From: Microbacterium sp.
GTDB lineage: Bacteria > Actinomycetota > Actinomycetes > Actinomycetales > Microbacteriaceae
DNA: 64,000 nt
NCBI RefSeq assembly: GCF_047606685.1
Contig: NZ_JASGEC010000060.1
Location: forward strand, 9,314-73,313
Direction: 5' to 3'
The notes below the pieces were generated by a model. That model saw nothing but the letters and a program-made list of their open reading frames with translations. It did no database searches and was not told the DNA's origin. Of the stretch, positions 16,536 through 49,667 are shown one piece after another (position 1 is the stretch's first letter; every line of letters begins with the position of its first letter). The translations under genes and the position numbers were made by a program.

Positions 16536-18128
16536 ATGACGTCCGTCGACGACGCCGTCTCGGCGTCCACCTTCACTTCTGCGCCGGCGGCGGCTTCGAC
16601 CACCGCGTCGCCGGGCGCGTTCGCGCCGATCGCGGCGCCGCGCACGGACGAGACGCCGGTCGTGCCCGGCACGCAGGTCGCACCGCGCGTCACGCCGACG
16701 CTCGAGCGCCGCCAGATGTGGGAGCGGCGGTACCGCCGTCGCCTGCGACTGACCGACACGCTCATCGTCGCCGCGTCTACGGTCGTGACGGCGGTCGTGC
16801 AGCACCAAGTGCTCGAGCCGGCGGTGCTCGCGGCCGACCCATGGATCCTGGCCCGCATTCCTGTCCTCGCGGCGGCGACGTGGCTGCTCGTTCTCGCGCT
16901 GTTCAGCACGCGCGACGCGCGCCTCATGGGCGCAGGCACCCGGGAGTACAAGCGCGTCGCGCACGCCACAGGGCTGGCCTTCGGCATCCTCGCGATCGCC
17001 TTTGTCGTCTTCCAGTGGCAGGGCATTCGCATGCAGCTGATCATCGCCCTGCCCGTGGGCCTGATCGGCCTGCTGTTCGGCCGGTGGGCGTCCCGCCGGT
17101 GGCTGCTGCGCCAGCGGAAGTTCGGCCACTACGTGTCGCGCGCCATCGTGGTGGGCCGCTCCGCCGACGTCGAGCACGCCATCCGCACTCTTCACCTCGA
17201 TGCGGCGAACGGCTACGTCGTCGTCGGCGCGACGCTCGACGACGACCACACCGGCGAAATCGTCGTGGACGGCCAGCCCTTCGCAACCGTGGGCAGCCTC
17301 AACACCGTCGCGCAGTCCGCCAACGAGCTCGGCGCCGACGCCATCATCGTTGCGAGCCAGCCCGACAACGACCCCGACTTCGTCAAGCGGCTGAGCTGGC
17401 AGCTGGAGGGAACGGCCGCCGAGCTGGTGCTGTCGAGCCGGTTGGTGGATGTCGCGGGCCCGCGCATCTCGCTGCGCCAGGTCGAGGGCCTGCCGCTCAT
17501 CAACGTCAAGATCCCGACGTACGAGGGCGGCCAGCACCTGCTCAAGCGGGCGCTCGACATCCTTGTCGCGACGATCGCGCTCATCTCGATCGGGCTGCTG
17601 TTCCCGTTCATCGCGCTCGCGATCAAGCTCGACTCGCGCGGCCCGGTGTTCTTCCGCCAAGAGCGCGTCGGCCGCGACGGCCGCCGGTTCCGGATGGTGA
17701 AGTTCCGCTCGATGAAGACGAACGCCGAGCAAGAGCTCGCGGCGCTGCTCGAAGAGAACGAGGGCTCGGGCCCGCTGTTCAAGATGAAGCACGACCCGCG
17801 CGTCACACGCGTCGGCCGCTTCCTGCGCAAGACGTCGCTCGACGAGCTGCCGCAGTTCTGGAACGTGCTCGTCGGCGACATGAGCGTCGTCGGCCCGCGC
17901 CCGCCGCTGCCGAGCGAAGTCACCGCCTACGACGGCACGGTGTTCCGCCGCCTGTACATCAACCCGGGCATCACCGGCCTGTGGCAGGTCAGCGGCCGCA
18001 GCGACCTCTCGTGGGAGGAGAGCGTGCGCCTCGACCTGCGCTACGTCGAGAACTGGTCGGTGATGAGCGACCTGCAGATCATGTGGCGCACCGCGAAGGT
18101 CATGGTGCGGCCGAACGGCGCGTACTAA
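16536..18128 (+). CDS. Polyprenyl glycosylphosphotransferase (WbaP/CpsE-type priming sugar transferase)
   Basis: It has N-terminal TM helices and a central Rossmann-like region. The C-terminal bacterial sugar transferase domain contains KRALDILVATIALI, GPVFFRQERVGRDGRRFRMVKFRSM, DELPQFWNVLVGDMSVVGPRPPLPSEV and RLDLRYVENWS. Confidence 0.92.
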   Translation: MTSVDDAVSASTFTSAPAAASTTASPGAFAPIAAPRTDETPVVPGTQVAPRVTPTLERRQMWERRYRRRLRLTDTLIVAASTVVTAVVQHQVLEPAVLAADPWILARIPVLAAATWLLVLALFSTRDARLMGAGTREYKRVAHATGLAFGILAIAFVVFQWQGIRMQLIIALPVGLIGLLFGRWASRRWLLRQRKFGHYVSRAIVVGRSADVEHAIRTLHLDAANGYVVVGATLDDDHTGEIVVDGQPFATVGSLNTVAQSANELGADAIIVASQPDNDPDFVKRLSWQLEGTAAELVLSSRLVDVAGPRISLRQVEGLPLINVKIPTYEGGQHLLKRALDILVATIALISIGLLFPFIALAIKLDSRGPVFFRQERVGRDGRRFRMVKFRSMKTNAEQELAALLEENEGSGPLFKMKHDPRVTRVGRFLRKTSLDELPQFWNVLVGDMSVVGPRPPLPSEVTAYDGTVFRRLYINPGITGLWQVSGRSDLSWEESVRLDLRYVENWSVMSDLQIMWRTAKVMVRPNGAY

Positions 18129-28394: not shown

Positions 28395-29408
28395 TCAGAT
28401 CCCGCGTCCGCGATTGTGCAAGAACTCCATCACCCGATCCGGCCGAACCAGTCCGACTGCGACTGCGACGGTCAACGGAGCGCGTAACTCGAGCGGGTTA
28501 CGTCTCCAAGAGCTAGCAGCCCAGCGAACGGCACGTCGCCGGTTCCCCATTGCGGCGTGAGCGAACGCAATCTGGCCTCGAACTCGGGCGGACCCTCGGC
28601 GCGATGCCTCAAACTCGGGGTAGCGCCGAAGAAGCCACGTCAAGCCGGCGGCCATTGTCTCCCAACGGCGGAAGAAAAAGGACTGCTTACCCCAGCGCAC
28701 GACGACGAGCGGGGCGGCGACGTTTACTATGGGGTGCAGCTTGGCGTGCCGCAAGAGGAACTCATAGTCTTCGCCAAAACCACCGGGTACCTGCTCGTCG
28801 ACCAACCCAACTGCATCGAGAAGGGAACGACGCAGGAGGAAGGTAGAGGGGTGAAGTTGAGTGTGACGATCTCGAAGGAGCGCGGTCATTGGAACTAATT
28901 CAGCGTCCAGCGTCCTATCAAACGTTTCACCGTCGTACTGCACCCGGATCCCTGTCGTCGCAAGGGAAGCATCCGGCCACGCAGAGATAGCCGCAATCTG
29001 TGCAGAGAGCCTGCCTGGAAGCCAATAATCATCGTCATCGCAGAAGGCGATGTACTCTCCCGCGGACGACCTGATGCCTGAGTTCCGCGCTCCCGCCAGA
29101 CCAACCTTGCGGGAATTTGTAGTTACACGAACTGAGCGGTGGTCACCCTCACGCTCGATGCCCTTGTCCGGCTCGCTCTGGTCAAACACGACGATCGTCT
29201 CAATGGGGCCAGAATAATCTTGACTCAACACGGCATCCACTGCTTCTCGGAGCATCTCCGGCCGGTCTCTAGTTGCTATAACAACCGAAACTAGCGGCAA
29301 CGGAGAGGTGATTGGACTCACCTCTTTAGGCAGCGTCTCGATCCGCTCTGAACCCCCGCCCGAAGTATACTTTCGCGCCAAGTGCTTCTCTTTCATGAGA
29401 GCGGGCAC
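28395..29408 (-). CDS. Family 2 glycosyltransferase
   Basis: The sequence has VSVVIATRDRPEMLREAVDAVLSQ, then ARNSGI, then YIAFCDDDDYWLP (the DxD motif). The start may be a few codons downstream. Confidence 0.88.
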   Translation of the reverse strand: MPALMKEKHLARKYTSGGGSERIETLPKEVSPITSPLPLVSVVIATRDRPEMLREAVDAVLSQDYSGPIETIVVFDQSEPDKGIEREGDHRSVRVTTNSRKVGLAGARNSGIRSSAGEYIAFCDDDDYWLPGRLSAQIAAISAWPDASLATTGIRVQYDGETFDRTLDAELVPMTALLRDRHTQLHPSTFLLRRSLLDAVGLVDEQVPGGFGEDYEFLLRHAKLHPIVNVAAPLVVVRWGKQSFFFRRWETMAAGLTWLLRRYPEFEASRRGSARVRGQIAFAHAAMGNRRRAVRWAASSWRRNPLELRAPLTVAVAVGLVRPDRVMEFLHNRGRGI

Positions 29409-29715
29409 AGCGAAAGGGCACTGCCTTCGCTCGAACGCTGCCTATCATCCGTCGATCGGCTGCACCAGAGTCTTGTTGACATGCCGAATCACTCCCCCTT
29501 GCAATCTTCCAGATGCCGAGCACCTTCAGAACCCGCCCTACGCGAGGTTATCATTTCCATACCTTCCACGTATCCTCCCCCTGGCTCTGGCGTGCGTTCG
29601 GCACAGCCGTGTCGGAGAGCTATGTGCAAACAGGTTCGCTGACCGCGGGCGACCCGGTTGCAGTACCTCGGTTGTGCGATCTTGAAGGGTGCGGCGGATG
29701 CACGTCCGCATACGC

Positions 29716-31152
29716 TCAGCTGTCGGTGTAGCCCAGCCAGGCCCGCACCGGTGCAGTCAGCAACTTCACCGTGCGGCGCTGTCGGTCCGGCATTGCTTCT
29801 CGCCACGCTTCGTCCGGGCGGATGATCACCGGCCCCAGCTGGAACCTCATCGGATTTCCTCCGATCGAGTGCCCGGTCTCCAATTCCACACCGTCCCGCG
29901 CCGACAGATCGACGTCGTAAACCCCGGGCAACTCCAGCGCATCCCATGCACGACGGAGCGTTTCGGTCGGAGCCCGAACGAAGTCCTCGTATCGCATGCG
30001 GTGCACTTGAGCACCCACGGCCCTTGTCAACTGAATGAGCAAGTTGTTCGATGCCCAGAGGGCGGATGCACTCGCTGACGAGTACCGAGCCATGCTGGCA
30101 GCCCGCTCGCCGGTCTCGGGTCGGCTGACTTCCTTTGACCACGAATAAGCAACTGCCACGCTGTCGCGGACAAGGTGCAAGATCCGCAGGTCGACCCGCC
30201 GGTCGTTGCTTAGCGCGAGTGCCAACGACGCGTGCTTGGACGAATCCACGACGATGTCCGCACCACTCACCTTGGCCGCGGCATCGTACACGGCTCGATA
30301 GAACGAGGTGTACCGCAGGATCTCGTCTCGGGCGGCGACGCTGCGAGGCCGCAGCGTCCGAAGCACACGTCTCTGCCTGTCCACGGCCTGGTGGAGTGCG
30401 AGTACCTCCTCAGGATCTACTGCGGACCACCCGCCGAAAGCCTGCTCGCCGACGGCGATCCAAAAGGCACATTGAGAGAAGGGAGTGCCGCAACCGCACA
30501 GCTCGTCCTCGATGAGCCCACGTCTCCACAGGTGCACAACCTCGCCCAAGGAGACTGCGTTCGGGATAGCCGTTACTGCCCTCTCGACAAGAGTCGATCC
30601 AGACCGGCCAAACCCTCCGATGTAGAGCACAACCGGACCGACTGGTGCGAGGGGGCGACGACGGTCTCGGTTCGCCTCGACCGTCGACTCGAACATACGC
30701 ACCGTCGATTTCACGGCAGAGCCCTCTCCGCTATGACTGCCCCTCTGGAGCCGCGTGCCACCCGACTGCGGATGCACGAAATCGTCGAGTTCGGCGATGT
30801 CCTCACACCTTGACACAAGGCCGTGGCTCTCCGCCCATCGGCTGAATCGCAACTGGTGGTCGTCCACGTGCTCTCCGTGTCGCGGGTCGCGCGGCACAAC
30901 GATCGGGTAGTGCCCGGCGGCTCGTGCCGCCGATATCGTTCCTGGGCCGCCGTGTGTGATGACAACGGCCGCCTCTGCCATGCGTGCGGCAAGATCCGCG
31001 GGGCTGAGGTAGTCGACGCCCTCAGCGTGCTCCGGCGGTTTCGCCGACCCGTATTGCACCAGCACCTTCTGGTCCGGATTACGACGTGCCCACTTGTCGG
31101 CCCACGCGACCGCACGGTTGAACGGATGGTGATCGGTGCCGAGGACCATCAT
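29716..31152 (-). CDS. Fusion protein: Alg13-like half-glycosyltransferase (Glyco_tran_28_C, PssE/Cps14G-type) plus a Stf0/Sulfotransfer_3-like sulfotransferase
   Basis: The N-terminal ~150 aa have VLGTDHHPFNR, VLVQYG, VITHGGPGTI, IVVPR and GEHVDDHQ. The C-terminal ~330 aa have the 5'-PSB loop YIGGFGRSGSTLVER, a CGCGTPFSQCAFW motif and the 3'-PB-like LHLVRDSVAVAYSW. The start is chosen at VMMVLG (about 31152). Confidence 0.8.
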   Translation of the reverse strand: MMVLGTDHHPFNRAVAWADKWARRNPDQKVLVQYGSAKPPEHAEGVDYLSPADLAARMAEAAVVITHGGPGTISAARAAGHYPIVVPRDPRHGEHVDDHQLRFSRWAESHGLVSRCEDIAELDDFVHPQSGGTRLQRGSHSGEGSAVKSTVRMFESTVEANRDRRRPLAPVGPVVLYIGGFGRSGSTLVERAVTAIPNAVSLGEVVHLWRRGLIEDELCGCGTPFSQCAFWIAVGEQAFGGWSAVDPEEVLALHQAVDRQRRVLRTLRPRSVAARDEILRYTSFYRAVYDAAAKVSGADIVVDSSKHASLALALSNDRRVDLRILHLVRDSVAVAYSWSKEVSRPETGERAASMARYSSASASALWASNNLLIQLTRAVGAQVHRMRYEDFVRAPTETLRRAWDALELPGVYDVDLSARDGVELETGHSIGGNPMRFQLGPVIIRPDEAWREAMPDRQRRTVKLLTAPVRAWLGYTDS

Positions 31153-31166
31153 GACATCCAGACCGG

Positions 31167-31658
31167 TCACAGCAGCGGGCCTATCACGATGGCATCGCGG
31201 TAAAGTCGCTGCTGCTCGGGCCACTGCACCATCATGATGCTGGTGAAGGGCCTAACCAGGCGGCCAGTGAGGGTCGGGGTCTCGACGCGGTCATACACCT
31301 CGATGTACACCGTCGTCATCCGAAAGATCCGCGCAAGAATGAAGAACGGCAAGGCGACCCCGGCGCCGGTTGAAACAACGATCTCAGGACGGCGACCACG
31401 AAGCACCTTCCACGCGAGGCGCGCGTTGCGAAGCAGATTGGGGATGTTGCGGGTTGTCGGATGGTACGCCCACAGGACGTCTGGCTCGTCCTTCAGCAGC
31501 GCGCTCGCCTCGGGCGTCTCGAACGTCACCCACGTGTGCGGCAAGTGAGACCACCACGGCTGCAGCGACCAAAGTTGAGCGAGATGCCCCCCGCTGGAGC
31601 CCACAAGCACCACTCGCCCCTCCGCGGCGAGACTGCTGAGTGGCGTGCTTGCGGACAT
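31167..31658 (-). CDS. Alg14-like membrane-anchoring half-glycosyltransferase (PssD/Cps14F-type)
   Basis: Matching motifs are VLVGSSGGHLAQL, ARLAWKVLRGRRPEIVVSTGAGVALPFFILARIF, TTVYIEVYDRV, PTLTG and VQWPEQ. The start is at MSAST (ATG 31658). Confidence 0.82.
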   Translation of the reverse strand: MSASTPLSSLAAEGRVVLVGSSGGHLAQLWSLQPWWSHLPHTWVTFETPEASALLKDEPDVLWAYHPTTRNIPNLLRNARLAWKVLRGRRPEIVVSTGAGVALPFFILARIFRMTTVYIEVYDRVETPTLTGRLVRPFTSIMMVQWPEQQRLYRDAIVIGPLL

Positions 31659-31791: not shown

Positions 31792-33450
31792 GTGGACCCA
31801 CTGACAACGGATGTCGGGAGGCTGGATGCCTCTCGCCCACTCAATGCTATTCGGCATCGATTGCCCACGATCGCCCTAATCACGGGCGCCGCTCTTGTTG
31901 GTGCCACGGTGTTCACCGCGCTGTCACCACGGACCTACGAGTCGAGCACGAGCGTGCTGGTGGCGCCCGTGTCGACCGGCGCAGATGTCGACATTGAGAA
32001 CGGGCGGACGAAAGGCACCATCAACCTGGATACCGAGGCCCAGATCGTGCGGTCAGTCGCCCTCGCGGACGAAGTGGCCGACATGCTCGACTCCGACCTC
32101 TCTCCTCGAAAGCTGGCCGAGTCCGTCTCGGTCACAGTCCCGGCGAACAGCCAGGTCCTCGATATCACCTTCGAGGGCCCAACCGCCGACGAGGCGATGG
32201 CGGGCGCCAAGACCTACGCCGAGGCCTATCTCGATCAGCGTCGCACCAGCACTGAGGATTCTTTGGCGGACGCGCGCAGCGACATCCTCGATCAGATCGA
32301 TGAGTTGCAGACGGAGTTCGCGGACGCGACCGCCCGCAGTCGCGACTCGAAGCTCAGCAAAGCCGACCGCACTATTGCCTCCACCAGACGAGACTTGCTC
32401 CTCAGCCAAATCTCTTCGCTCAACGCCAGCCTGACGTCGATCAGCGGGTCGAGAGTCGATCCGGGACACGTCCTCAGCACCGCGAACTATCCAGACAGCC
32501 CCGCCTCCCCCAGCTTTCCGATCAATTTGTCGGCAGGGCTCCTGCTAGGGCTGCTGATCAGTTTCGCGTTCGCCGTAGTGAGCGGGCGGTTCGACCATCG
32601 GATACGAACTCCACGTGACATCAGGCCGCCCACGGGAGCAGTGCGCGTGCATCAGGAACTCTTGAATCTCTCGGAAGGCATCGCTGAAGACCTCCCAGCG
32701 GACAACGTCGATCAGTTGAGGGTGGCAATCGATTCGTTCGGATCGAACGAGCCACGCGCTGTGCTGGTGGCTCCCGTGGGAGCGCACCGGGACGCCGACA
32801 CTCTCGCACTCGCTCTCGGCCATTCCTACGCTCGCCGGCTTGGCTCTGCCACCTGCGCGATTGCAAGCACAGCCGAATCGAATGAAACAGAAGCGATTGG
32901 ACTGACGGACCTCTTCGCCGGAGATGGGGCCGTGAAGCCTGTCGCGCTTGACGACTCGGGGCTGGCGGTGATCGGCCCCGGAAGAAACCCTGAGCGACTC
33001 GGCGTGATGCTTCAGCGGCCGCACGCCATCGAACGCGTGCTTCGACTGAGCGACACCGTCGTGGTCTTGTCTACTCCCTCACTTCACCTCTCGGCTGGCG
33101 CACAGTCCGTACTCCACGCGGTGGACCGGATCGTGCTCGTAGGTGTGGCCGGCTCCATGGACGACCGAGCGCTGGCACAGACGATCGAGGCTGTCGAACG
33201 GTCGCATTTCACAGGAACGACAACAGTTGTGCTGCTCAGCGCGGGTGATGAACTTCGGGATCGTCGCAAACGCCGGCTGGCCGGATCCGTGCCGAGCGAC
33301 GAGGTCGAGGCGCGCGCAGTAGACGAGGCACCCGAGACGGAAAGCGAGGCTGGGACGGATCACCGCCCCGAGCGTCTGCGATCTGACAGCGCGAGCAAAG
33401 GCGGCCGTCCACGCCCGACCACAAACGAGGAAGCGTCGGGCAGCGCATGA
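31792..33450 (+). CDS. Wzz/PCP-type chain-length determinant with a degenerate (P-loop-less) BY-kinase-like C-terminal domain
   Basis: The Wzz N-terminus has TM1, then YESSTSVLVAP...NLDTEAQIVRS, coiled-coil segments and TM2 (LSAGLLLGLLISFAFAVV). The C-terminus resembles a BY-kinase. However, Walker A is replaced by VAPVGAHRDADT, Walker B hhhhDTPP is replaced by VVVLSTPSL, and there is no C-terminal Tyr cluster. Confidence 0.75.
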   Translation: MDPLTTDVGRLDASRPLNAIRHRLPTIALITGAALVGATVFTALSPRTYESSTSVLVAPVSTGADVDIENGRTKGTINLDTEAQIVRSVALADEVADMLDSDLSPRKLAESVSVTVPANSQVLDITFEGPTADEAMAGAKTYAEAYLDQRRTSTEDSLADARSDILDQIDELQTEFADATARSRDSKLSKADRTIASTRRDLLLSQISSLNASLTSISGSRVDPGHVLSTANYPDSPASPSFPINLSAGLLLGLLISFAFAVVSGRFDHRIRTPRDIRPPTGAVRVHQELLNLSEGIAEDLPADNVDQLRVAIDSFGSNEPRAVLVAPVGAHRDADTLALALGHSYARRLGSATCAIASTAESNETEAIGLTDLFAGDGAVKPVALDDSGLAVIGPGRNPERLGVMLQRPHAIERVLRLSDTVVVLSTPSLHLSAGAQSVLHAVDRIVLVGVAGSMDDRALAQTIEAVERSHFTGTTTVVLLSAGDELRDRRKRRLAGSVPSDEVEARAVDEAPETESEAGTDHRPERLRSDSASKGGRPRPTTNEEASGSA

Positions 33451-34814
33451 TGGTCTCGGTCCTCTCGACCGAGACCGCCGCTGGCAAGCGGACGCTACCC
33501 CCGTCTTGGCCGGTTTGGGCCGCCACCGCCGCGTACCCCCTGTGGTGGGCGCTCGGCCTCACCACCGTGATCTACCCCCTGCTCGCCGTTGTACTCGCCC
33601 TTCGTCTGCTTTACATGCGACGTCTCAAACTTCCGCCCGGCTGGCTGTTCTGGGCCATGTTTCTGCTGGTGGTCGTGGCGAGCATCGTCATGCTGGACGT
33701 GGATGCACCTGGCACGGCCACGCAAAGCGGGATAGGCCCGTACGGCGCCTATGCGCTGCGGTTTCTCGATTATCTGTGCTTCACGCTGCTGCTGCTGTAC
33801 GTGGGGAACCACAGTGAACAGACGTTGCCCTTGCGCAGCGTTATCGCCGCGTTCTCAAGCTTGGCTGCGTCTGTGGGCCTTCTCGGACTAGCCGGCACAC
33901 TCCTCCCGACATTCTCGTTCCGCACTCCGGCGAGCTACGTGTTGCCCGAGGTTCTCGTGGGCGACGGCGCGGCGAGGCTCGCGCAAGTGCAGGACATTCT
34001 CGGCGAGGGGGCAGCCCCGAGGCCCTCCGCTCCGTTCGACTACACGAACACGTGGGGCGAGGTCTTGTCGATGGCCATGGTGTGGCTCGTCGTGTATGCC
34101 GTGGTCTTCCGCGCACGGCGGAAGTCAATCGGTCTCGTCCTGGGACTCTCGATTATTCCGACCATCGCCTCCCTGAACCGGGGGATGTGGATCGGAATTG
34201 TGCTCACGATCGCGTACGTGGCGGTGCGACTCGCGATGCGGCTTCGCCTCGCCTTGGCTGTCAGCATCGTTGCGCTAATCGCGGTGGCGGGCGGCGTGCT
34301 CGCTATCTCCCCTGCTGGCGAGCTGATCGAGGCGAGGCTTGAGAGCGGGCATTCTGACCAGATCCGCGAGAACCTCGCGAATGACTCCCTCCGGCTAGCG
34401 AACGAGTCTCCAATTCTCGGCTTCGGGTCGACTCGTCGAACTCAAGGCTCCTACGAGTCGATCGCGATCGGGCCATCCGCGAGCTGCAGCCAATGTGGCG
34501 AGCGTGTTATTGGCAGCACGGGACAGCTCTGGCTTCTCCTGGTTGCGCAAGGCTGGCTCGGCACAATCCTCTACTTCACCTTCTTCGCATACGCGCTATG
34601 GACCTTCAGGCGAGATCACTCGCCAGCCGGGATCGCAGCGTCGGCAGTGATCCTTCTCTCGATCTATTACTCCTACTTCTACTCTGCGATCGGGACTCCT
34701 CTTGCGATGGCGATGCTCGCCGTCGCGATGCTGTGGCGCAGTGCTCAGGAACGCTCTCTCGCTGCGGAACAGATGAGCACCAATGACGGCGAGAAGAGCG
34801 GCCTCAAGCCATGA
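33447..34814 (+). CDS. O-antigen ligase/Wzy-like polymerase, polytopic membrane protein
   Basis: It has about 10-12 TM helices and a periplasmic loop with LNRGMWIGIVL...RL, as in the Wzy_C family. Its start overlaps the Wzz-like stop by 4 nt. Confidence 0.7.
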   Translation: MMVSVLSTETAAGKRTLPPSWPVWAATAAYPLWWALGLTTVIYPLLAVVLALRLLYMRRLKLPPGWLFWAMFLLVVVASIVMLDVDAPGTATQSGIGPYGAYALRFLDYLCFTLLLLYVGNHSEQTLPLRSVIAAFSSLAASVGLLGLAGTLLPTFSFRTPASYVLPEVLVGDGAARLAQVQDILGEGAAPRPSAPFDYTNTWGEVLSMAMVWLVVYAVVFRARRKSIGLVLGLSIIPTIASLNRGMWIGIVLTIAYVAVRLAMRLRLALAVSIVALIAVAGGVLAISPAGELIEARLESGHSDQIRENLANDSLRLANESPILGFGSTRRTQGSYESIAIGPSASCSQCGERVIGSTGQLWLLLVAQGWLGTILYFTFFAYALWTFRRDHSPAGIAASAVILLSIYYSYFYSAIGTPLAMAMLAVAMLWRSAQERSLAAEQMSTNDGEKSGLKP

Positions 34815-35944
34815 TTGAAGAACCCCTCCTTGCCTGTCTGACTGACGTGTTCTCTTCCGACGGACAGGTCGGCATCCGCGATGTGCTTGCGCTCCCCACC
34901 TCTGGCGATCCACGCGCGTTTGTGCCCGTCGCTCACCGGCGGTCGGCCGCCCGTGCGCTGTGGAGACAGTACGCCGGGGGTGGAGCGCGCCGGAGGGCTG
35001 AGACCACAGCGCTGGCGTCGCTGGTGACGATTGGCTTCGCCGGCCGAGTTCCCCGATGGCGCGTGTCGTTTCCCGATCCGCCTTCAGAAAGCGCGTTCCA
35101 CCCCTGGCTGCGAACAGTGCTGCACCAGCCCTATTACGTGGGCATCGTCTTGATCGGCCCGAGGCGCGCCAACAGGAAGCCTGTGGTGATGCTCACCGAC
35201 CGTCAGGGTGCTCTCATCGCGGTCGCCAAACTCGGCTACAACCGCGTCACCCGGCCGCTGGTCCGGCATGAGGCCAACGCGCTGCGCGATGTGGCGGCCG
35301 CGCTCGAGGGTCGCGCGCACGTACCTGTGCTTCTCGCTTCCGATCGGCTTGAACACACAGAGGCGATGTTGATGAATCCGTTGCCCAAGATCAACTCGGG
35401 AAAGCGTGTATCAAGAGAGACTCTCGTGGCGGTCGTGCGCGGGATCGCTTCTTCGGCCGTGGGCAGACGCACCGACTTGTCCACGGTGATCGAACACCCT
35501 CGCATGAGGCCGATCGTGGACGCTGCCAACCGCGTCAGCGCTCGCACTAGCCAGGCACCGGTCGGTGCCGCACATGGCGACCTTCACGCAGGAAATCTCG
35601 GGGTTGCGGAAGACGGACGACCGGTGATCTGGGACTGGGAGAGATGGACACACGGCGTCCCCGTCGGGTTCGACCTGCTGCATCACGACCTCCAATCGTG
35701 GGTATCGGGCGGAAGCGATCCACAGGAGGCCGCTCGGCGTCTGCTCGCCACCGCGCCCGAGATCTTGGCTCCGCTGGGGGTCCCGACGCACCTTGCCGCT
35801 GACATCGCCTGCGACTACCTGGTACGGCTTGCCGCACGGTACGTTGACGATGCGCAGGATCAGGCCGGATCAAAATTGGGCACCGTGGAGAATTGGCTGT
35901 TCCCCGCCGTGCTCGACCACCAACAGAACGAGGAGCGCACGTGA
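34811..35944 (+). CDS. APH/choline-kinase-like phosphotransferase family protein
   Basis: The Brenner-type catalytic loop is AAHGDLHAGNLGV, followed by VIWDWERW, as in the aminoglycoside phosphotransferase fold. It overlaps both neighbours by 4 nt. Confidence 0.7.
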   Translation: MIEEPLLACLTDVFSSDGQVGIRDVLALPTSGDPRAFVPVAHRRSAARALWRQYAGGGARRRAETTALASLVTIGFAGRVPRWRVSFPDPPSESAFHPWLRTVLHQPYYVGIVLIGPRRANRKPVVMLTDRQGALIAVAKLGYNRVTRPLVRHEANALRDVAAALEGRAHVPVLLASDRLEHTEAMLMNPLPKINSGKRVSRETLVAVVRGIASSAVGRRTDLSTVIEHPRMRPIVDAANRVSARTSQAPVGAAHGDLHAGNLGVAEDGRPVIWDWERWTHGVPVGFDLLHHDLQSWVSGGSDPQEAARRLLATAPEILAPLGVPTHLAADIACDYLVRLAARYVDDAQDQAGSKLGTVENWLFPAVLDHQQNEERT

Positions 35945-36807
35945 CGACCCCAAAAGACCTGCTCAGGCGTCTTGAGCCGCTTGCGCGAGGAACCGTGAGC
36001 ACTATGGCTCCTGTCACTGCGGCTCTGCGGTTGAAGCCGGCGTTCTTGATCGTCGGCGGGCAGCGCTGCGGCACCACATCGCTCTTCAAGACACTCGCGC
36101 AACACCCCGCAGTGGCACGCCCCTTCATTTTCAAGGGCATCCACTACTTCGACATGCACTATTCGAGATCCTTCGCCTGGTACCGGGGGCACTTTCCGCT
36201 TGAAGTCACGTCACGCCTTCGTCGGCTTCGCGGAGCGGGTCCGATCACCGGGGAGTCCAGCCCGTTCTACGGCTTCCACCCCCTCGCAGCGCAACGGATC
36301 GCGAACGACCTTCCCAATGTCCGCCTCATCATGCTGCTCCGCGATCCCGTGGAGCGCGCATACTCTGCCCACAGCCATGAGCGCGCGCGCGGCTTTGAGA
36401 ATGAGACGTTCGACCGAGCGCTAGAGCTCGAACAAGAAAGAACTCACGGAGAACGAGAGCGAATGATGCAGGACCCGTCCTACGTGAGCTTCCACCTACA
36501 GCATCACTCTTACATCGCACGCGGCCGGTATATCGAGCAGATCGAAGCGTTGCAATCCGCCGTCGGCAGGGAGCGTCTGCACGTCGTCGACTCGCACGAG
36601 TTCTTCACCCAGCCCGAAACCGTCTTCCCGGGGATCCTCCAGTTCCTCGGGTTAGAGCGCCACGCCGGCATCACCTTCGAACGGCACAACGCGCGAGACA
36701 GGAATCCCATGGAGACGAAGCTGCGCGAGCAGCTATTGTCGCGTTTCGACGAGTCAGATGCTCGTCTAGCCGAATGGTGGGGGCGTCCGCTTTCGTGGCG
36801 ACAGTAA
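35941..36807 (+). CDS. Sulfotransferase (Sulfotransfer_1-like, heparan-sulfate-sulfotransferase-type fold)
   Basis: The 5'-PSB loop is PAFLIVGGQRCGTTSLFKTLAQHP (Arg where Lys is more usual). Other matches are HYFD, WYRGHF, GESSPFY and the 3'-PB motif IMLLRDPVERAYS. The GTG start overlaps the previous stop (GTGA). Confidence 0.85.
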   Translation: MTTPKDLLRRLEPLARGTVSTMAPVTAALRLKPAFLIVGGQRCGTTSLFKTLAQHPAVARPFIFKGIHYFDMHYSRSFAWYRGHFPLEVTSRLRRLRGAGPITGESSPFYGFHPLAAQRIANDLPNVRLIMLLRDPVERAYSAHSHERARGFENETFDRALELEQERTHGERERMMQDPSYVSFHLQHHSYIARGRYIEQIEALQSAVGRERLHVVDSHEFFTQPETVFPGILQFLGLERHAGITFERHNARDRNPMETKLREQLLSRFDESDARLAEWWGRPLSWRQ

Positions 36808-38351
36808 GCGGAGCGGATGACGGGGCCCGACACGAGGCGGCAGGCACGAAAAATGTCGCGCGAGGAGGCCTAGCCAACCTCGTCGGCGCGGGTTACTCAG
36901 GTGTGGCCTCTTTCGTCACAACGGTGATCGTCGCCCGGATCGCCACGCCACAAGACGCAGGCTTCTACTTCTCTGCGGTTGCGCTCGTGCTGATCGCTGC
37001 CGCGCTGGTCGAGCTCGGTGTGCCTGTCGGCTACGTGTACTTCCTGGCCAGATACCGAGGACTGGAGCGCACGGATGGCTTGCGCGGCATCCTCACTGCG
37101 GGCGCTGCACCGATGCTGAGCCTAGGGGTGATCGTTGCGGCCGTGGGAGTCGTTTTCAGGGAGCCGTTGGGGACGCTGCTTCTCGGCGACGAGGCCGACA
37201 GCCGTGCGATGATCATGACGATCGTGGCAGGGTCGGTCCTTCTTGCAATCGTCGCCGACAGCGCTCTGAGCGCGACTCGTGGCTTTGGCGTCATGCGGCC
37301 GACCGTGGTGGCCGACAAGTTTGTCAATCCCACTATCCAGCTAGCTGCGCTCTTGCTTCTGTCGGTCGTGGGTTGGACCGGAGGCGAAGAACTCGTCTGG
37401 ACGCGCGCACTCGGTTTCGCCGCTGTCGCGGTGATCGGCACCGTCTGGCTCACCCGACTGCTTCGCCGGTATCCTCGCCCCCTCGGTGAGTCTCTGCGAG
37501 ATGCCTGGACCCCGGAAGGAGCGACAACTCGAGCGTTCTGGAAGTATGCGGGACCACGCGCCGTTGGTCAGATCGCACAGGTCGGCGTCCAACGGGTAGA
37601 TATCGTTCTGGTGGCGCTCTGGTTGAGCCCGTCCGAGGCGGCTGTGTACGCAGCCGCGACTCGGTTCCTCATATTCGGCCAGTTAGCGGCAAACGCGATC
37701 GGTACGGCAGTCCAGCCTCGGTTCAGCAACCTGACTGCCCGAGGCGAGATGAGCGCTCTGCAGGATCTCTACCGGACTTCAACCGCGTGGGTGATGTTCG
37801 CCACGTGGCCCTTCTACCTCACCTTCATCGTGCACGCAGACCTGCTGATGGATGTCTTCGGCGAGGTGTACGCGAGTGGCGCCTCGGTGCTCCGGATCCT
37901 GTCCGCGGCGATGCTGGTCGCGACAGCGTGCGGAGCCGTGGATGCAGTTCTGCTGATGGCGGGCCGGTCGACGTGGACGATGATCAACGCGTGGGTGGCA
38001 CTCGTGGTGAATCTCGGACTGAACATCTGGCTGATTCCACGCCTCGGAATCCTCGGCGCCACGATCGCTTGGGTTGCAGCGATCCTCGTCAATAACGTCG
38101 TCCCACTCATCCAGGTGCTACGGGGCCTTCACGTTCACCCGTTCGACCGGATCACAATGCTGGCTGCCCTCGCCCCCGTCTTGCTGTTCGGAGTCGGACC
38201 GTGCATCGTGGCGCAGCTTGGGGGCGGGTTGGTCGGCGGGATCGCTTCCCTCACTGTGGCTGCGGCCATTTATTGCCCGCTTCTGTGGCGATGGAGGCGA
38301 CCCCTTGGACTCGTTGGCCTCTTCCGACGAAATGGTCGCGGGAAGAGCTAA
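36774..38351 (+). CDS. Wzx-like oligosaccharide flippase (MOP superfamily)
   Basis: It has about 12-14 TM helices and the typical N-terminus ARGGLANLVGAGYSGVASFVTTVIVARI. The start is uncertain, lying between 36774 and 36795. Confidence 0.8.
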   Translation: MVGASAFVATVSGADDGARHEAAGTKNVARGGLANLVGAGYSGVASFVTTVIVARIATPQDAGFYFSAVALVLIAAALVELGVPVGYVYFLARYRGLERTDGLRGILTAGAAPMLSLGVIVAAVGVVFREPLGTLLLGDEADSRAMIMTIVAGSVLLAIVADSALSATRGFGVMRPTVVADKFVNPTIQLAALLLLSVVGWTGGEELVWTRALGFAAVAVIGTVWLTRLLRRYPRPLGESLRDAWTPEGATTRAFWKYAGPRAVGQIAQVGVQRVDIVLVALWLSPSEAAVYAAATRFLIFGQLAANAIGTAVQPRFSNLTARGEMSALQDLYRTSTAWVMFATWPFYLTFIVHADLLMDVFGEVYASGASVLRILSAAMLVATACGAVDAVLLMAGRSTWTMINAWVALVVNLGLNIWLIPRLGILGATIAWVAAILVNNVVPLIQVLRGLHVHPFDRITMLAALAPVLLFGVGPCIVAQLGGGLVGGIASLTVAAAIYCPLLWRWRRPLGLVGLFRRNGRGKS

Positions 38352-44313: not shown

Positions 44314-45495
44314 TCAGGACAGGATCCCCCGCTGCGTGAGCAGCCCCGTTACGGCGTCGACGCACTCTTCGACGCTCAGCTGCGACGTGTCGAGCACGAG
44401 GTCGGCGTCGGTTGGCTCCTCGTACGGCGAGTCGATGCCCGTGAAGTCGGAGATCAGGCCCGCGCGCGCCTTCGCGTAGAGACCCTTGCGATCACGCGAC
44501 TCGGCGACCGCGAGCGGGGTCGACACATAGACGACGACGAACGGCGAGTCGGGCTCGACCTTGCCCCGCATCGCATCGCGCGACGACGCGAACGGCGCGA
44601 TCGGCGCGCACACCGCGAGCCCGCCTGCCTCCGCGACCCGGGCGCCCACCCACGCGATGCGACGCAGATTCGTGTCGCGGTCGTCGCGGCTGAAGCCGAG
44701 CTCGGCAGCCAGCTCGTGCCGCACGTGGTCGCCGTCGAGCAGCACCGCCTTGTGCCCCCCGGTCGACGACACGCGCTCGACGAGCGCGCGGGCGACGGTC
44801 GACTTGCCCGCCCCCGACAGCCCGGTGAACAGCACGACCGCGCCGCCGGTTGCTGCGGAGACCGGATGCCGCAGGTCGACGACCTCGGCGGCTCCCCGGC
44901 CCTCGGCCACGACGCGGGCGACATCGGCGTCTGCGCCGAGGTCGACGGCGGGCAGATACCACGCGCGCGCGTCGGGCAGCAGCGCCGCCGCGTCACGCAG
45001 GTCGGCGACGAGCGCCGCCGAGCCCGCGTCGCCGGCGACGCCGACCGCGACGAGGTCGAGGCCGCGATGCCCCGCGGCTTGCGCCGCGCGCAGCACGTCG
45101 GCGGCGGCCACTGCCCCGCCGAACAAAGCGACCACGCGGTCGTCGAAGCGCGTTGCCGACGTGATGCGCAGGTCGCGGGCGATGCCGTGCGCCGGAGGTC
45201 GCAGCTCGGCGACCGGGCCGCTCAGCCACGCCGACCCGCTCGCCGACGCGACGGCGTCGATGCGCAGCTCGGCCAGCGGCGTGTTCTCGGGGTCGCACAA
45301 GTGCACGAGCTGGCCGCGACCGAGGCCCGCCGCCACGCTCGGGGCCACCTCGAGGAGCGCCGCCACCGGCCACGCGTCGGGCTTGGAATCGGGCAGGCAG
45401 TAGCCGTTGACAGGAGCCAGCGCCCCGCCCAGGATCAGCTCGAGCGCCTCGAGCCGGTCGCCGGCGAGCACGAGCACGGCGTCGGCGGGCATCAT
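44314..45495 (-). CDS. cysC: Adenylylsulfate (APS) kinase with a ~210-aa N-terminal extension resembling a degenerate ATP-sulfurylase PUA-like region
   Basis: The C-terminal half has VVLFTGLSGAGKSTVARAL, LLDGDHVRHEL, LGFSRDDRDTNLRRIAWV, APIAPF and DRKGLYAKAR. The N-terminus has DRLEALELILGGALAPVNGYCLP. I did not see the sulfurylase QxRNPxH/HxxH motifs. Confidence 0.85.
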   Translation of the reverse strand: MMPADAVLVLAGDRLEALELILGGALAPVNGYCLPDSKPDAWPVAALLEVAPSVAAGLGRGQLVHLCDPENTPLAELRIDAVASASGSAWLSGPVAELRPPAHGIARDLRITSATRFDDRVVALFGGAVAAADVLRAAQAAGHRGLDLVAVGVAGDAGSAALVADLRDAAALLPDARAWYLPAVDLGADADVARVVAEGRGAAEVVDLRHPVSAATGGAVVLFTGLSGAGKSTVARALVERVSSTGGHKAVLLDGDHVRHELAAELGFSRDDRDTNLRRIAWVGARVAEAGGLAVCAPIAPFASSRDAMRGKVEPDSPFVVVYVSTPLAVAESRDRKGLYAKARAGLISDFTGIDSPYEEPTDADLVLDTSQLSVEECVDAVTGLLTQRGILS

Positions 45496-46747: not shown

Positions 46748-47506
46748 GTGACCAATGACGCGAAGGCGGCCGCCGCGCTCGCCCGCGAAGCGGGCCAGCT
46801 ACTGCTCGACGTGCAGCGCAACGCGAGCGCGGACGAGCTCGGCACGAAAGATCTGAAAGACAGAGGGGATGCCGCGAGCCAGCGGTACCTCGCGCAGGCG
46901 CTGGCGGAGCGGCAGCCGGGCGACGCCGTGCTGTCGGAGGAGGCGGCCGACGACCTCGCCCGCCTCGATGCCAAGCGCGTCTGGATCATCGACCCGCTCG
47001 ACGGCACCCGCGAGTTCTCTGAGGGCCGCCACGACTGGGCGGTGCACGTCGCGCTGTGGTCGGAGGGCGAGCTGAGCGCCGGCGCGGTGGCGCTGCCCGG
47101 CGTCGACACCGTGCTCTCCAGCGCCGACGCGCCCCGTCAGTGGCAGCGACCCGACCGCATCCGCCTCGCCGTCTCGCGCAGCCGCGCGACCGCCCTCGTG
47201 CAGGCCCTCGCCGACGAGCTCGGCGCCGAGCTCGTGCCGATGGGGTCGGCCGGCTACAAGGCCGCGGCCGTCGTGCGCGGCGAGGTCGACGCCTACGTGC
47301 ACACCGGCGGCCAGTACGAGTGGGACTCGGCAGCCCCGGTCGCCGTCGCCCGCGCCGCCGGCCTGTTCACGTCGCGGGTGGACGGCTCGCCGCTGGTGTA
47401 CAACAACGAGAACCCGTACCTGCCCGACTTGGTAGTCTGCAATCCGCTGATCGCCGACGATGTGTTGCGACGCCTGAGCGCGCTCCTGGAGGGGGAGTCC
47501 CGATGA
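46748..47506 (+). CDS. cysQ: 3'(2'),5'-bisphosphate nucleotidase (PAP phosphatase), inositol monophosphatase family
   Basis: Matching motifs are VLSEEAADD, WIIDPLDGTREF and the WDSAAP motif. It has a GTG start. Its stop overlaps the cysD start (ATGA). Confidence 0.85.
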   Translation: MTNDAKAAAALAREAGQLLLDVQRNASADELGTKDLKDRGDAASQRYLAQALAERQPGDAVLSEEAADDLARLDAKRVWIIDPLDGTREFSEGRHDWAVHVALWSEGELSAGAVALPGVDTVLSSADAPRQWQRPDRIRLAVSRSRATALVQALADELGAELVPMGSAGYKAAAVVRGEVDAYVHTGGQYEWDSAAPVAVARAAGLFTSRVDGSPLVYNNENPYLPDLVVCNPLIADDVLRRLSALLEGESR

Positions 47507-48423
47507 CCGAAGTGACCGAGGCAGACCGCTACGGGCTCACCCAGCTCGACTACCTCGAGGCCGAGGCGATCTTCATCATCCGCGAGATCGTCGCCGAGAA
47601 CGAGAGCCCCGGCATGCTCTTCTCGGGCGGCAAAGACTCGATCGTGATGCTGCACCTCGCCGCAAAGGCGTTCGCGCCGGCATCCATTCCCTTCCCGGTC
47701 GTCCACGTCGACACCGGCCACAACTTCGACGAGGTGATCGAGTACCGCGACCGCCGCGTCGCCGAGCTCGGCGTGCGCCTCATCGTCGGCTCGGTGCCCG
47801 ACGCGATCGCCGCGGGCCTGGTGCGCGAGGAGCCGAACGGCTCGCGCAACCGCATCCAGACCCCCGTGCTGCTGAAGACGGCCGAGGACCACGGCCTGAC
47901 CGCGCTCATGGGCGGCGCGCGGCGCGACGAGGAGAAGGCCCGCGCGAAAGAGCGCGTCTTCTCGTTCCGCGACGACTTCGGCCAGTGGGATCCGAAGAAC
48001 CAGCGCCCCGAGCTGTGGTCGCTGTACAACGGCCGCATCCACCCGGGCGAGAGCATCCGCTGCTTCCCGCTGTCGAACTGGACCGAGCTCGACATCTGGG
48101 AGTACATCGCCCGCGAAGGCATCGAGGTGCCCTCGATCTACTACGCGCACGAGCGCGAGGTGTTCCTGCGAGGCGGCATGTACATGGCCGTGAACCAGCA
48201 CTGCCAGCCCAAAGAAGGCGAAGAGGTCTTCACCGAGACCGTGCGCTATCGCACGGTCGGCGACGCCACGCTGACTGCCGCCGTGCTATCGCAAGCGCGC
48301 ACCGCGGAGGACGTGGTGGCCGAAGTGGCCGCGACGCGCATCACCGAGCGCGGCGCGACGCGCGGCGACGACAAGGTCAGCGAAGCGGCGATGGAAGACC
48401 GCAAGAAAGAGGGCTACTTCTGA
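47503..48423 (+). CDS. cysD: Sulfate adenylyltransferase subunit 2
   Basis: The sequence contains LTQLDYLEAEAIFIIREIVAE...MLFSGGKDSIVMLHLA (PP-loop SGGKDS), ARRDEEKARAKERVFSFRD and WELYN-type WSLYNGR. The long upstream extension in the ORF track is an artefact. Confidence 0.95.
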   Translation: MTEVTEADRYGLTQLDYLEAEAIFIIREIVAENESPGMLFSGGKDSIVMLHLAAKAFAPASIPFPVVHVDTGHNFDEVIEYRDRRVAELGVRLIVGSVPDAIAAGLVREEPNGSRNRIQTPVLLKTAEDHGLTALMGGARRDEEKARAKERVFSFRDDFGQWDPKNQRPELWSLYNGRIHPGESIRCFPLSNWTELDIWEYIAREGIEVPSIYYAHEREVFLRGGMYMAVNQHCQPKEGEEVFTETVRYRTVGDATLTAAVLSQARTAEDVVAEVAATRITERGATRGDDKVSEAAMEDRKKEGYF

Positions 48424-49667
48424 TGGACATCCTCCGCTTTGCCACCGCGGGCTCGGTCGACGACGGCAAGAGCACCCTCATCGGGCGCCTGCTGTACGAC
48501 TCGAAGTCGATCTTCACCGACCAGCTCGACGCCGTCGAGCGCACGAGCGAGCAGCGCGGCGACCAGTACACCGACCTGGCGCTTTTGACCGACGGCCTGC
48601 GCGCCGAGCGCGAGCAGGGCATCACGATCGACGTGGCGTACCGCTACTTCTCCACGCCGCTGCGCAAGTTCATCATCGCCGACACCCCCGGGCACATCCA
48701 GTACACGCGCAACATGGTCACCGGCGCCTCGACCGCCGACCTCGCCATCATCTTGATCGACGCGCGCAAGGGCCTGCTCGAGCAGAGCCGCCGGCACGCG
48801 ACGATCGTGTCGCTGCTGCGCGTGCCGCACGTCGTGCTCGCGATCAACAAAATGGACCTCGTCGACTGGTCGCAAGACGTCTACAACGAGATCAGCGGGG
48901 CGTTCCGCGACTTCGCGGCGCGGCTCGACTTCGCCGACGTCACCGCCATCCCGGTTTCCGCCCTCACCGGCGACAACGTGGTGACCCGCTCGCAGAACAT
49001 GCCGTGGTACGAGGGCCCGTCGCTGCTGCACCACCTCGAGCACGTCTACATCGCGAGCGACCGCAACCTGGTCGACGTGCGGTTCCCGGTGCAGTATGTG
49101 ATCCGGCCGCAGAACGGCCGCGGCGACTTCCGCGGCTTCGCCGGCCAGCTGGTCAGCGGCGTCATCCGCCCCGGCGACGAGATCGTCGCACTGCCCAGCG
49201 GCCTGCCGTCGCGCGTGCGCGCGGTGAGCACCGCCGACGGCGAGCTCGAAGAGGCCTACCCGCCCATGTCGATCACGGTGCAGCTCGAGGACGAGGTCGA
49301 CATCTCGCGCGGCGACATGATCAGCCGCCCGCACAACCAGCCGCTGGCGACGCAGGATGTCGACGCGATGGTCTGCTGGATGGACACGGCCCCGATGAAC
49401 GTGGGAGCCAAGTACGCGATCAAGCACACGACGCGCTCGGCGCGGGCGATGGTGAAAGACATCCAGTACGAGCTCGACATCAACACGCTGCACCGTGAAC
49501 AGTCGCCCAGCAGCCTCGGGCTCAACGGCATCGGCCGCGTGACGCTGCGCACGACGCAGCCGCTGCTGGTCGACCCCTACCGCCGCAACCGGCAGACCGG
49601 GTCGTTCATCCTGATCGACGAGGCAACCAACCGCACGGTCGGCGCGGGGTTCATCACCGAGAACTGA
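48423..49667 (+). CDS. cysN: Sulfate adenylyltransferase subunit 1 (GTPase), without a fused APS-kinase domain
   Basis: The sequence contains LRFATAGSVDDGKSTLIGRLL (G1), DGLRAEREQGITIDVAY, ADTPGH (G3) and NKMD (G4). It ends at 415 aa with no CysC domain. Confidence 0.95.
   Translation: MDILRFATAGSVDDGKSTLIGRLLYDSKSIFTDQLDAVERTSEQRGDQYTDLALLTDGLRAEREQGITIDVAYRYFSTPLRKFIIADTPGHIQYTRNMVTGASTADLAIILIDARKGLLEQSRRHATIVSLLRVPHVVLAINKMDLVDWSQDVYNEISGAFRDFAARLDFADVTAIPVSALTGDNVVTRSQNMPWYEGPSLLHHLEHVYIASDRNLVDVRFPVQYVIRPQNGRGDFRGFAGQLVSGVIRPGDEIVALPSGLPSRVRAVSTADGELEEAYPPMSITVQLEDEVDISRGDMISRPHNQPLATQDVDAMVCWMDTAPMNVGAKYAIKHTTRSARAMVKDIQYELDINTLHREQSPSSLGLNGIGRVTLRTTQPLLVDPYRRNRQTGSFILIDEATNRTVGAGFITEN

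Follow-up and report, generated by a model that had tools for sequence, protein, structure and literature searches.

Results and Discussion

In the present study we analysed a 64,000-nucleotide (nt) stretch of DNA of Microbacterium sp. (assembly GCF_047606685.1, contig NZ_JASGEC010000060.1, positions 9,314 to 73,313), referred to below as the window. Its minus strand carries a gene (positions 29716-31152) whose product combines the PssE/Alg13-like half of a split glycosyltransferase (GT) with a sulfotransferase (ST) domain predicted to use 3'-phosphoadenosine 5'-phosphosulfate (PAPS). This fusion protein, PssE-ST, is probably a two-domain enzyme of a Wzx/Wzy-dependent pathway for the synthesis of a sulfated surface polysaccharide. 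The domain matches in both halves, the recurrence of the same architecture in Actinomycetota and the gene content of the surrounding locus all point to this role (Table 1).

The fused reading frame

Analysis of the open reading frames (ORFs) revealed that the minus strand is open without interruption from position 31224 down to 29716. The ATG at position 31152, which had been taken as the start in a preliminary description of this locus, yields a product of 478 amino acids (aa). An in-frame GTG (31170-31168), overlapping the stop codon of the upstream pssD gene as GTGA, yields a 484-aa version, and the public protein collection contains this longer version (P0003). At the junction of the two domains frame 0 alone is open, since both other frames are closed by stops in the linker; the stop codon or frameshift that might have divided the gene at this point was not seen.

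A search of 5.8 billion proteins detected more than 100 clusters combining PF04101 with PF13469 (43-69% identity, approximately 99% coverage), which originate from NCBI, ENA, JGI and Logan assemblies. P0004-P0008, the five closest relatives, stem from independent assemblies, are similar in length and have their fusion point at the same site; identity to the window protein is 70-75% in the ST half and 59-71% in the GT half. The nearest fused relative (P0004, locus L082) also shares the gene arrangement of the window, and the fused form is present in the cultured strains Catellatospora aurea, C. coxensis and Catellatospora sp. The large number of fused clusters, their independent assemblies and their divergence argue that the fusion is not an artefact.

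It might still be supposed that a one-base error in the linker had merged separate pssE and ST genes of the kind found in Pilimelia and in many metagenome-assembled genomes (MAGs). The source genome is a draft of 103 contigs, and 20 related loci have unfused copies of the two genes, which a single frame shift at an ATGA junction would turn into a fusion. This explanation is hardly credible, however, because the linker of the window gene shows no trace of an ATGA and stays in frame when aligned with fused homologues on either side, while the independently assembled P0004-P0008 and the Catellatospora isolates are fused as well. As judged from the sequence, the fusion is a genuine single ORF.

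The glycosyltransferase half and its PssD partner

The N-terminal part of the protein is matched by PF04101 (Glyco_tran_28_C) over aa 11-122, where profile positions 14-133 of 166 are covered with a score of 38 bits (cut-off 22), and by the NCBIfam PssE/Cps14G model over aa 2-127 (E 2e-18). It also matches the C-terminal half of the single-chain enzyme WelK. Foldseek comparison with the PDB placed it close to the C-domains of GT-B enzymes (e.g. 2iyf, 7yan, 2o6l), with approximately 130-150 residues aligned to the donor-binding C-domains of OleD and UGT2B, and a profile search of the PDB matched MurG (7d1i) and, weakly (E about 0.5), ALG13 (2ks6). Residues G5, T6, D7 and H9, as well as H67, G68, G69 and P70 of an HGGPGT motif and E94, H95, D97, H99 and Q100 of an EHVDDHQ motif, are invariant in 41 fused homologues. 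We take the two motifs to be the donor-binding motifs of Alg13 and MurG. By all these matches, the GT half comprises the C-terminal (donor-binding) Rossmann domain of a GT-B enzyme and nothing more.

A candidate for the acceptor-binding half is encoded directly upstream. The product of this gene (P0002) matches PF08660 (Alg14; 41.7 bits against a cut-off of 27), the NCBIfam PssD/Cps14F model (E 2e-30) and the N-terminal half of WelK. Depending on whether the GTG or the ATG is taken as the start of the fusion gene, the two genes overlap as GTGA or are separated by 14 nt, and pssD lies immediately upstream of pssE in all the related loci that have pssE. An Alg13-type half-glycosyltransferase with an Alg14-like partner at 31167-31658 had already been recognized in the preliminary description, and both assignments stand. 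The same does not apply to the membrane anchor that PssD was supposed to provide, since a scan of P0002 and its upstream extension found no N-terminal transmembrane or other hydrophobic helix. The sole hydrophobic stretch, IVVSTGAGVALPFFILARI, is a segment of the Rossmann core and was rejected as a transmembrane anchor. Membrane association of PssD, if any, would be peripheral.

An AlphaFold2 (AF2) model of the fusion, based on the 41 fused homologues, has a mean predicted local distance difference test (pLDDT) score of 90.2 and contains two well-folded domains. These are joined by a weakly predicted segment (aa 130-172, pLDDT 55-70), in which AF2 places a helix at aa 143-161 (pLDDT 55-68). 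In alignments, this helix coincides with the C-terminal tail of PssE proteins encoded on their own (pattern A..V.RF..LV). In ALG13 a C-terminal helix is needed for the binding of ALG14, and human ALG13 isoform 1, which is without this helix, is inactive with ALG14 (PMC9527342). By analogy, the retained PssE helix would probably mediate docking onto PssD. Because this helix has been kept, and the ST has been appended after a short Arg-rich stretch, we infer that, once the two GT halves have assembled, the ST domain is tethered on the acceptor (PssD) side of the enzyme.

The sulfotransferase domain

A single-sequence search of the PDB with the fusion gave marginal matches only, and a profile search and Foldseek were needed for the identification of structural relatives. 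PF13469 (Sulfotransfer_3) matches aa 177-409 with 44.3 bits (cut-off 27) over nearly the whole profile (positions 3-213 of 216), and the domain is modelled with pLDDT >90. Foldseek matched it with probability 1.0 and E values of about 1e-5 to 5wrj, 3ap1, 4gox, 4gbm, 2z6v and 2zq5, i.e. to structures of the tyrosylprotein sulfotransferases TPST1/2, the olefin-synthase (OLS) ST (4gox), the CurM ST (4gbm) and the mycobacterial enzymes Stf9 and Stf1. The target-normalised TM-scores were 0.5-0.6 for 5wrj, 3ap1, 4gox and 4gbm, and 0.34-0.38 for 2z6v and 2zq5. No model in the NCBIfam scan matched the ST domain. The earlier reading of the C-terminal part as a complete sulfotransferase was thus borne out, and the three motifs quoted for it are present: GGFGRSGSTL (aa 179-188), CGCG-x5-C-x-FW (aa 219-231) and RD..AVAYS (aa 329-337).

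Conservation was assessed in 86 related ST domains, fused and unfused. In the 5'-phosphosulfate-binding (PSB) loop, where GRSGST (aa 182-187) was aligned by the profile search to the PRSGTT/PRSGST loops of TPST1, the OLS ST and the CurM ST, S184 and G185 are invariant and R183 and T187 are each conserved in 85 of the 86 domains. The 3'-phosphate-binding (3'-PB) motif is aligned, as VRDSVAVAYS, to VRDGRASVHS of TPST1 and VRHPYAVIES of the OLS ST; R329 is retained in 85 and S337 in 79 domains. The probable catalytic base, E204, is invariant and aligned to the GEE of TPST1, although which of the TPST Glu residues it corresponds to hinges on a one-residue gap. G203 and R436 are invariant as well. 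Since the cofactor motifs are intact in both halves of the fusion, both look catalytically competent.

Full conservation (86/86) was also observed for C219, C221, C228 and W231 of the Cys motif, which is kept even in degenerate copies of the domain. It may serve as a structural or metal site and mark out a sulfotransferase subfamily that has no name as yet. H207 was considered as a fourth ligand of a three-Cys site and rejected, being conserved in just 54 of the 86 domains.

PssE fused to a degenerate ST was detected at four loci (L035:5998-7341, L039:6001-7320, L052:6001-7104 and L066:5389-6393), in Arthrobacter sp. Soil763 and several Nocardioides or Actinomycetota MAGs. In these proteins the PSB loop, GE, DSSKH and RD..S have been lost and the C-terminal third is missing, while the C-x-C...C-x-FW...FGGW segment is retained. 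Judging by these losses, the degenerate fusions are a pseudo-enzyme branch of the PssE-ST architecture.

Fused, split and dispersed forms of the module

A scan of one genome per species identified 492 relatives; the locus counts given here refer to the best 80 loci, and the counts of ST copies to the 86 ST domains compared. Both halves are encoded by one ORF in 18 of the 80 loci. Adjacent but separate pssE and ST genes were found in 20 loci, including those of Pilimelia terevasa and P. anulata, and in 15 of the 19 split loci examined the TGA of pssE overlaps the ATG or GTG of the ST gene by 4 nt (ATGA/GTGA). A single frame change would suffice to merge genes overlapping as ATGA. Three loci, among them those of Nocardioides jensenii and Streptomyces specialis, have the order ST-pssD-pssE, and another 21 ST copies have pssDE at some other place within 6 kb. 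Overall, pssDE is present within 6 kb of 62 of the 86 ST copies, and none was seen within this distance of the remaining 24. Some proteins go one step further: triple fusions PssE-ST-GT2 (P0021, 818 aa; P0067; P0080; P0091, 733 aa) mirror the gene order of the window, in which the fusion gene is followed by a GT2 gene.

The fusion spans several orders of Actinomycetota at 43-69% identity. All the relatives come from this phylum except L049 (CAZCVW010000057.1, a 'Burkholderiales' MAG), which is probably a misbinned contig, because the ST tree groups it tightly with Acidimicrobiia and Actinomycetes. In the maximum-likelihood tree of the ST domains the fused state changes at least 12 times, and at least 6 of these changes are forced by strongly supported branches. 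The nearest relative of the window ST (L001, 73% identity) is a stand-alone protein. In L001 and L083 the ST gene occupies the same position as in the window, divergent from Wzz and followed by GT2, and an Alg14 plus GT28_C pair lies approximately 6 kb away on the other strand (L001:14299-15296, L083:12949-13967). This stand-alone pair sits between genes for surface proteins with PKD and LamG domains. The location of pssDE on the opposite strand, between the PKD/LamG genes, indicates that the difference from the window arose by rearrangement within the cluster. In the clade of the window, the fused state goes with the placement of pssDE directly upstream of the ST, whichever of the two came first. 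The fusion is an evolutionarily labile state of a conserved pssD-pssE-ST module.

The polysaccharide locus and sulfate supply

The fusion gene is located in an island of 63% G+C (about 18-44 kb of the window) surrounded by DNA of approximately 70% G+C, and none of 24 genomes from this genus carries the gene. As shown in Table 1, a priming transferase, a flippase, a polymerase and a co-polymerase are encoded together at this locus, which is the gene content of a Wzx/Wzy system. The priming enzyme is the sole Bac_transf protein detected in a genome-wide family search. The operon divergent from pssD and the fusion gene has the same gene order in L001, L082 and L083. The position of the kinase-like gene between Wzy and the second ST is likewise kept in these three loci and parallels that of Actinoplanes WpsI. 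The fusion gene and GT2 are separated by a gap of 307 nt (29409-29715) without a convincing ORF; the corresponding gap in L001 and L082 measures 50-100 nt. The island and its edges also encode GH26-like hydrolases and surface proteins with PKD, LamG and malectin domains.

Only two proteins of the genome match PF13469, namely the fusion and the second ST. Genes for the production of PAPS lie just outside the island. CysC is the sole true adenosine 5'-phosphosulfate (APS) kinase of the genome, and carries an N-terminal extension of approximately 215 aa that has no family match. Of 16 genomes from this genus, only 2 proved to contain a true APS kinase; PAPS synthesis therefore looks accessory and linked to the fusion locus. 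With both STs, CysC and CysDN encoded at one site, the locus has the appearance of a self-contained sulfation system.

Table 1. Features of the window that bear on the PssE-ST fusion and its predicted pathway
Feature	Position (nt)	Strand	Basis
PssE-sulfotransferase fusion gene, 478 aa	29716-31152	-	ORF, Pfam, NCBIfam, protein search
PssE/Cps14G/Alg13-like C-terminal Rossmann half of GT-B, predicted nucleotide-sugar-binding (aa 1-130)	30763-31152	-	Pfam, NCBIfam, Foldseek, profile
Variable segment, PssE C-terminal helix and Arg-rich linker (RDRRRP) (aa 131-172)	30637-30762	-	AF2, alignment
PAPS-type sulfotransferase domain, Sulfotransfer_3 (aa 173-478 and stop codon)	29716-30636	-	Pfam, AF2, Foldseek, profile
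5'-Phosphosulfate-binding loop G180-L188 (GFGRSGSTL)	30589-30615	-	Alignment, conservation
E204, probable catalytic base	30541-30543	-	Conservation, alignment to TPST1 GEE
Cys motif C219-G-C221-G-x5-C228-x-F-W231, subfamily-specific	30460-30498	-	Conservation
3'-Phosphate-binding motif R329-S337 (RDSVAVAYS)	30142-30168	-	Alignment, conservation
pssD/Alg14-like gene, predicted acceptor-binding N-terminal half of split GT-B	31167-31658	-	PF08660, NCBIfam
GT2 glycosyltransferase, downstream of fusion	28395-29408	-	Domain match; fused to PssE-ST in some relatives
Priming phosphoglycosyl transferase (Bac_transf, WbaP/PssA-like)	16536-18128	+	Family search
Divergent operon, Wzz-like to Wzx	31792-38351	+	Domain matches
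Wzz-like	31792-33450	+	Divergent operon
Wzy (Wzy_C)	33447-34814	+	Divergent operon
APH-like kinase, 377 aa	34811-35944	+	Weak APH match, E 0.0014
Second sulfotransferase (Sulfotransfer_1 type)	35893-36807	+	Divergent operon
Wzx flippase (Polysacc_synt/MatE)	36774-38351	+	Divergent operon
CysC, APS kinase (makes PAPS)	44314-45495	-	Domain match; just outside island
CysD and CysN, sulfate adenylyltransferase (ORFs 47056-48423 and 47985-49667)	47056-49667	+	ORFs; just outside island

Proposed pathway and alternative explanations

In the pathway that we propose, the WbaP-like transferase would prime undecaprenyl phosphate with a sugar phosphate. PssD, contributing the acceptor half, and the PssE part of the fusion, contributing the nucleotide-sugar half, would form one GT-B enzyme adding the second sugar, as Cps14F/G, PssD/E and WelK do. 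This step is to be expected, because the enzyme is encoded in a Wzx/Wzy cluster together with a Bac_transf priming enzyme. The ST domain, tethered past the docking helix, would then sulfate the lipid-linked oligosaccharide at the cytoplasmic face with PAPS supplied by the neighbouring CysDN and CysC. GT2, the second ST and the kinase-like protein would complete the unit, which Wzx would flip in its sulfated form and Wzy would polymerise. Sulfation is placed before flipping because PAPS is cytoplasmic and the fusion protein contains no hydrophobic stretch fit for a signal peptide or a transmembrane segment.

The preliminary description went further, and held that glycosyl transfer and sulfation are physically coupled at the membrane. 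The coupling is a reasonable reading, strengthened by the recurrence of the fusion, the ATGA overlaps in other genomes and the triple fusions with GT2; it may take place physically at the membrane. A still stronger version would have pssD-pssE-ST(-GT2) act as a dedicated assembly line, in which the lipid-linked intermediate has to be sulfated after the second glycosyl transfer and before the third, by an ST kept at the acceptor site of the split GT. We put this version forward tentatively, as a possibility that falls short of being probable.

Several observations weigh against the role that we assign to the fusion. Its function is one that we infer, and the evidence that the ORF is genuinely single is comparative. 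Both NCBIfam matches lie under the equivalog cut-offs (66.5 bits against 120 for NF041548, the PssE model, and 106.4 against 110 for the PssD/Cps14F model), so that neither the transferred sugar nor the linkage can be named. The pTM (predicted TM-score) of 0.70 and the low-confidence linker mean that the model gives no fixed inter-domain geometry, and ALG13 isoform 1 shows that C-terminal extensions of the Alg13 half can abolish the binding of Alg14. Fusion is not required for the association of the genes, because close relatives carry them unfused and up to 6 kb apart. The sulfated exopolysaccharide (EPS) of the related wps-1 cluster is itself just predicted (PMC13390465).

The covalent link between the two domains could be of no consequence. 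Both would then be active in the same pathway, and their fusion, an accident (loss of a stop at an ATGA junction, or a rearrangement) adding no channelling or kinetic coupling, would be tolerated because the proteins are co-expressed 1:1 anyway. The changes of state on the ST tree (at least 12) are in keeping with this, and so are the ATGA-overlapped split genes, which are as common as fusions, the distance of approximately 6 kb between ST and pssDE within the same cluster of the closest relatives, and the linker, with its low pLDDT and its variable sequence and length. Repeated independent fusion is, however, also what selection for proximity would yield, and the fused state persists over a deep divergence, at 43-69% identity and in several orders of Actinomycetota, and has been extended to triple fusions with the next GT2. 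We regard a neutral fusion as unlikely.

It is very improbable that one of the domains is a non-catalytic scaffold, with the PssE half just docking the ST on PssD or the ST just binding the glycan. PssE fusions to a degenerate ST without any PAPS motif do exist (L035, L039, L052, L066), but in the window protein HGGPGT, EHVDDHQ, GRSGST, E204 and RD..S are all intact, and they are conserved among its homologues; moreover, the genome has no other PssE that could supply the missing activity, and no PF13469 copy besides the fusion and the second ST. Equally little credence can be given to a non-glycan target, i.e. a protein tyrosine (as for TPST or RaxST) or a small molecule, to which the link with PssE would be unrelated. 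The best structural matches of the domain are indeed tyrosylprotein sulfotransferases, but the identity to TPST is just 15-20% and reflects the common Sulfotransfer_3 fold, whereas the gene lies inside a Wzx/Wzy cluster and its relatives tie the ST to pssDE and GT2 by fusion, overlap and adjacency. A two-domain enzyme of sulfated polysaccharide synthesis thus remains the reading that we prefer.

Comparison with known systems

The two-gene arrangement of an Alg14-like and an Alg13-like protein is the same as in PssD/PssE of Rhizobium leguminosarum (EPS) and Cps14F/Cps14G of Streptococcus pneumoniae type 14. In the window, however, the PssE half carries a 300-aa C-terminal ST, and PssD is without an N-terminal transmembrane helix. 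In the single-chain glucuronosyltransferases WelK/GelK/SpsK the two halves form one protein, and both halves of WelK are matched by PssD and the fusion of the window. The eukaryotic ALG13/ALG14 UDP-GlcNAc transferase resembles the window system in that its Alg13 subunit is a half-GT, active only with its Alg14 partner. Human ALG13 isoform 1, in which the Alg13 half is joined to an OTU and other domains, provides a precedent for C-terminal additions; unlike this isoform, the bacterial fusion keeps the docking helix, and its added domain comes from the same pathway.

The ST domain is similar to TPST1/2, the CurM ST, the OLS ST and Stf1/Stf9 in fold, PSB loop, 3'-PB motif and, as aligned, a putatively catalytic acidic residue, at an identity of 13-20%. 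The CurM and OLS STs are likewise domains embedded in multi-domain biosynthetic proteins. What sets the window ST apart is the invariant C-x-C-x6-C-x2-W insert, which was not seen in the aligned stretches of solved ST structures, and its substrate, presumably a lipid-linked glycan instead of the peptide or polyketide of the solved STs compared.

At the level of the whole locus, two predicted sulfated-EPS clusters were compared, wps-1 of Actinoplanes missouriensis (PMC13390465) and xss/synechan of Synechocystis (PMC8205485). Both are like the window in having Wzx/Wzy, two STs of different families, GT2, a GH26-like hydrolase and a kinase-like protein. The Wzz-Wzy-kinase-ST-Wzx order of the window matches that of wpsK-J-I-H-G, the gene content and order of wps-1 being known from the text of that paper. 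In that text, wps-1 has a GT26 protein (WpsC) where the window has PssD/PssE, and WpsB is described without a GT half. The accessible parts of the wps-1 and synechan accounts report no GT-ST fusion.

Novelty and biological significance

The preliminary description had noted no described example of this architecture. We likewise found no description of a half-GT fused to a sulfotransferase in the open-access literature, including one review of polysaccharide sulfotransferases. The architecture itself is real and by no means rare or unique: a search for PF04101 combined with a sulfotransferase domain gave the more than 100 clusters mentioned above, and in the databases it occurs in hundreds of proteins, which bear the automatic names 'sulfotransferase' or 'ALG13 subunit'. 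PssE-ST, seen here as a split GT-B enzyme joined to a PAPS sulfotransferase, is thus new only as to the literature.

Sulfated polysaccharides are prized as biomaterials. To our knowledge, those of bacteria are considered rare outside cyanobacteria, and the literature treats them as essentially cyanobacterial. A 2026 paper on Actinoplanes raises a sulfated polysaccharide in actinomycetes as a possibility only. The PssE-ST family provides a concrete and widespread marker for possible sulfated-polysaccharide pathways in Actinomycetota. For the chemical analysis of the products there are cultured carriers of both forms, the fused one in Catellatospora and the split one in Pilimelia.

By Rosetta-stone logic, the fusion points to an ST step that follows the addition of the second sugar by PssD/PssE, and to the lipid-linked unit at the cytoplasmic face as the site of sulfation. 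The timing of sulfation in a Wzx/Wzy pathway thereby becomes testable with three or four recombinant proteins, and the fusion itself would be a compact two-activity part for the engineering of sulfated glycans. The module behind the assembly-line reading is spread over Catellatospora, Pilimelia, Nocardioides, Nocardiopsis, Actinotalea, Acidimicrobiia and others; if that reading is true, sulfated, glycosaminoglycan-like surface polysaccharides would be common in Actinomycetota.

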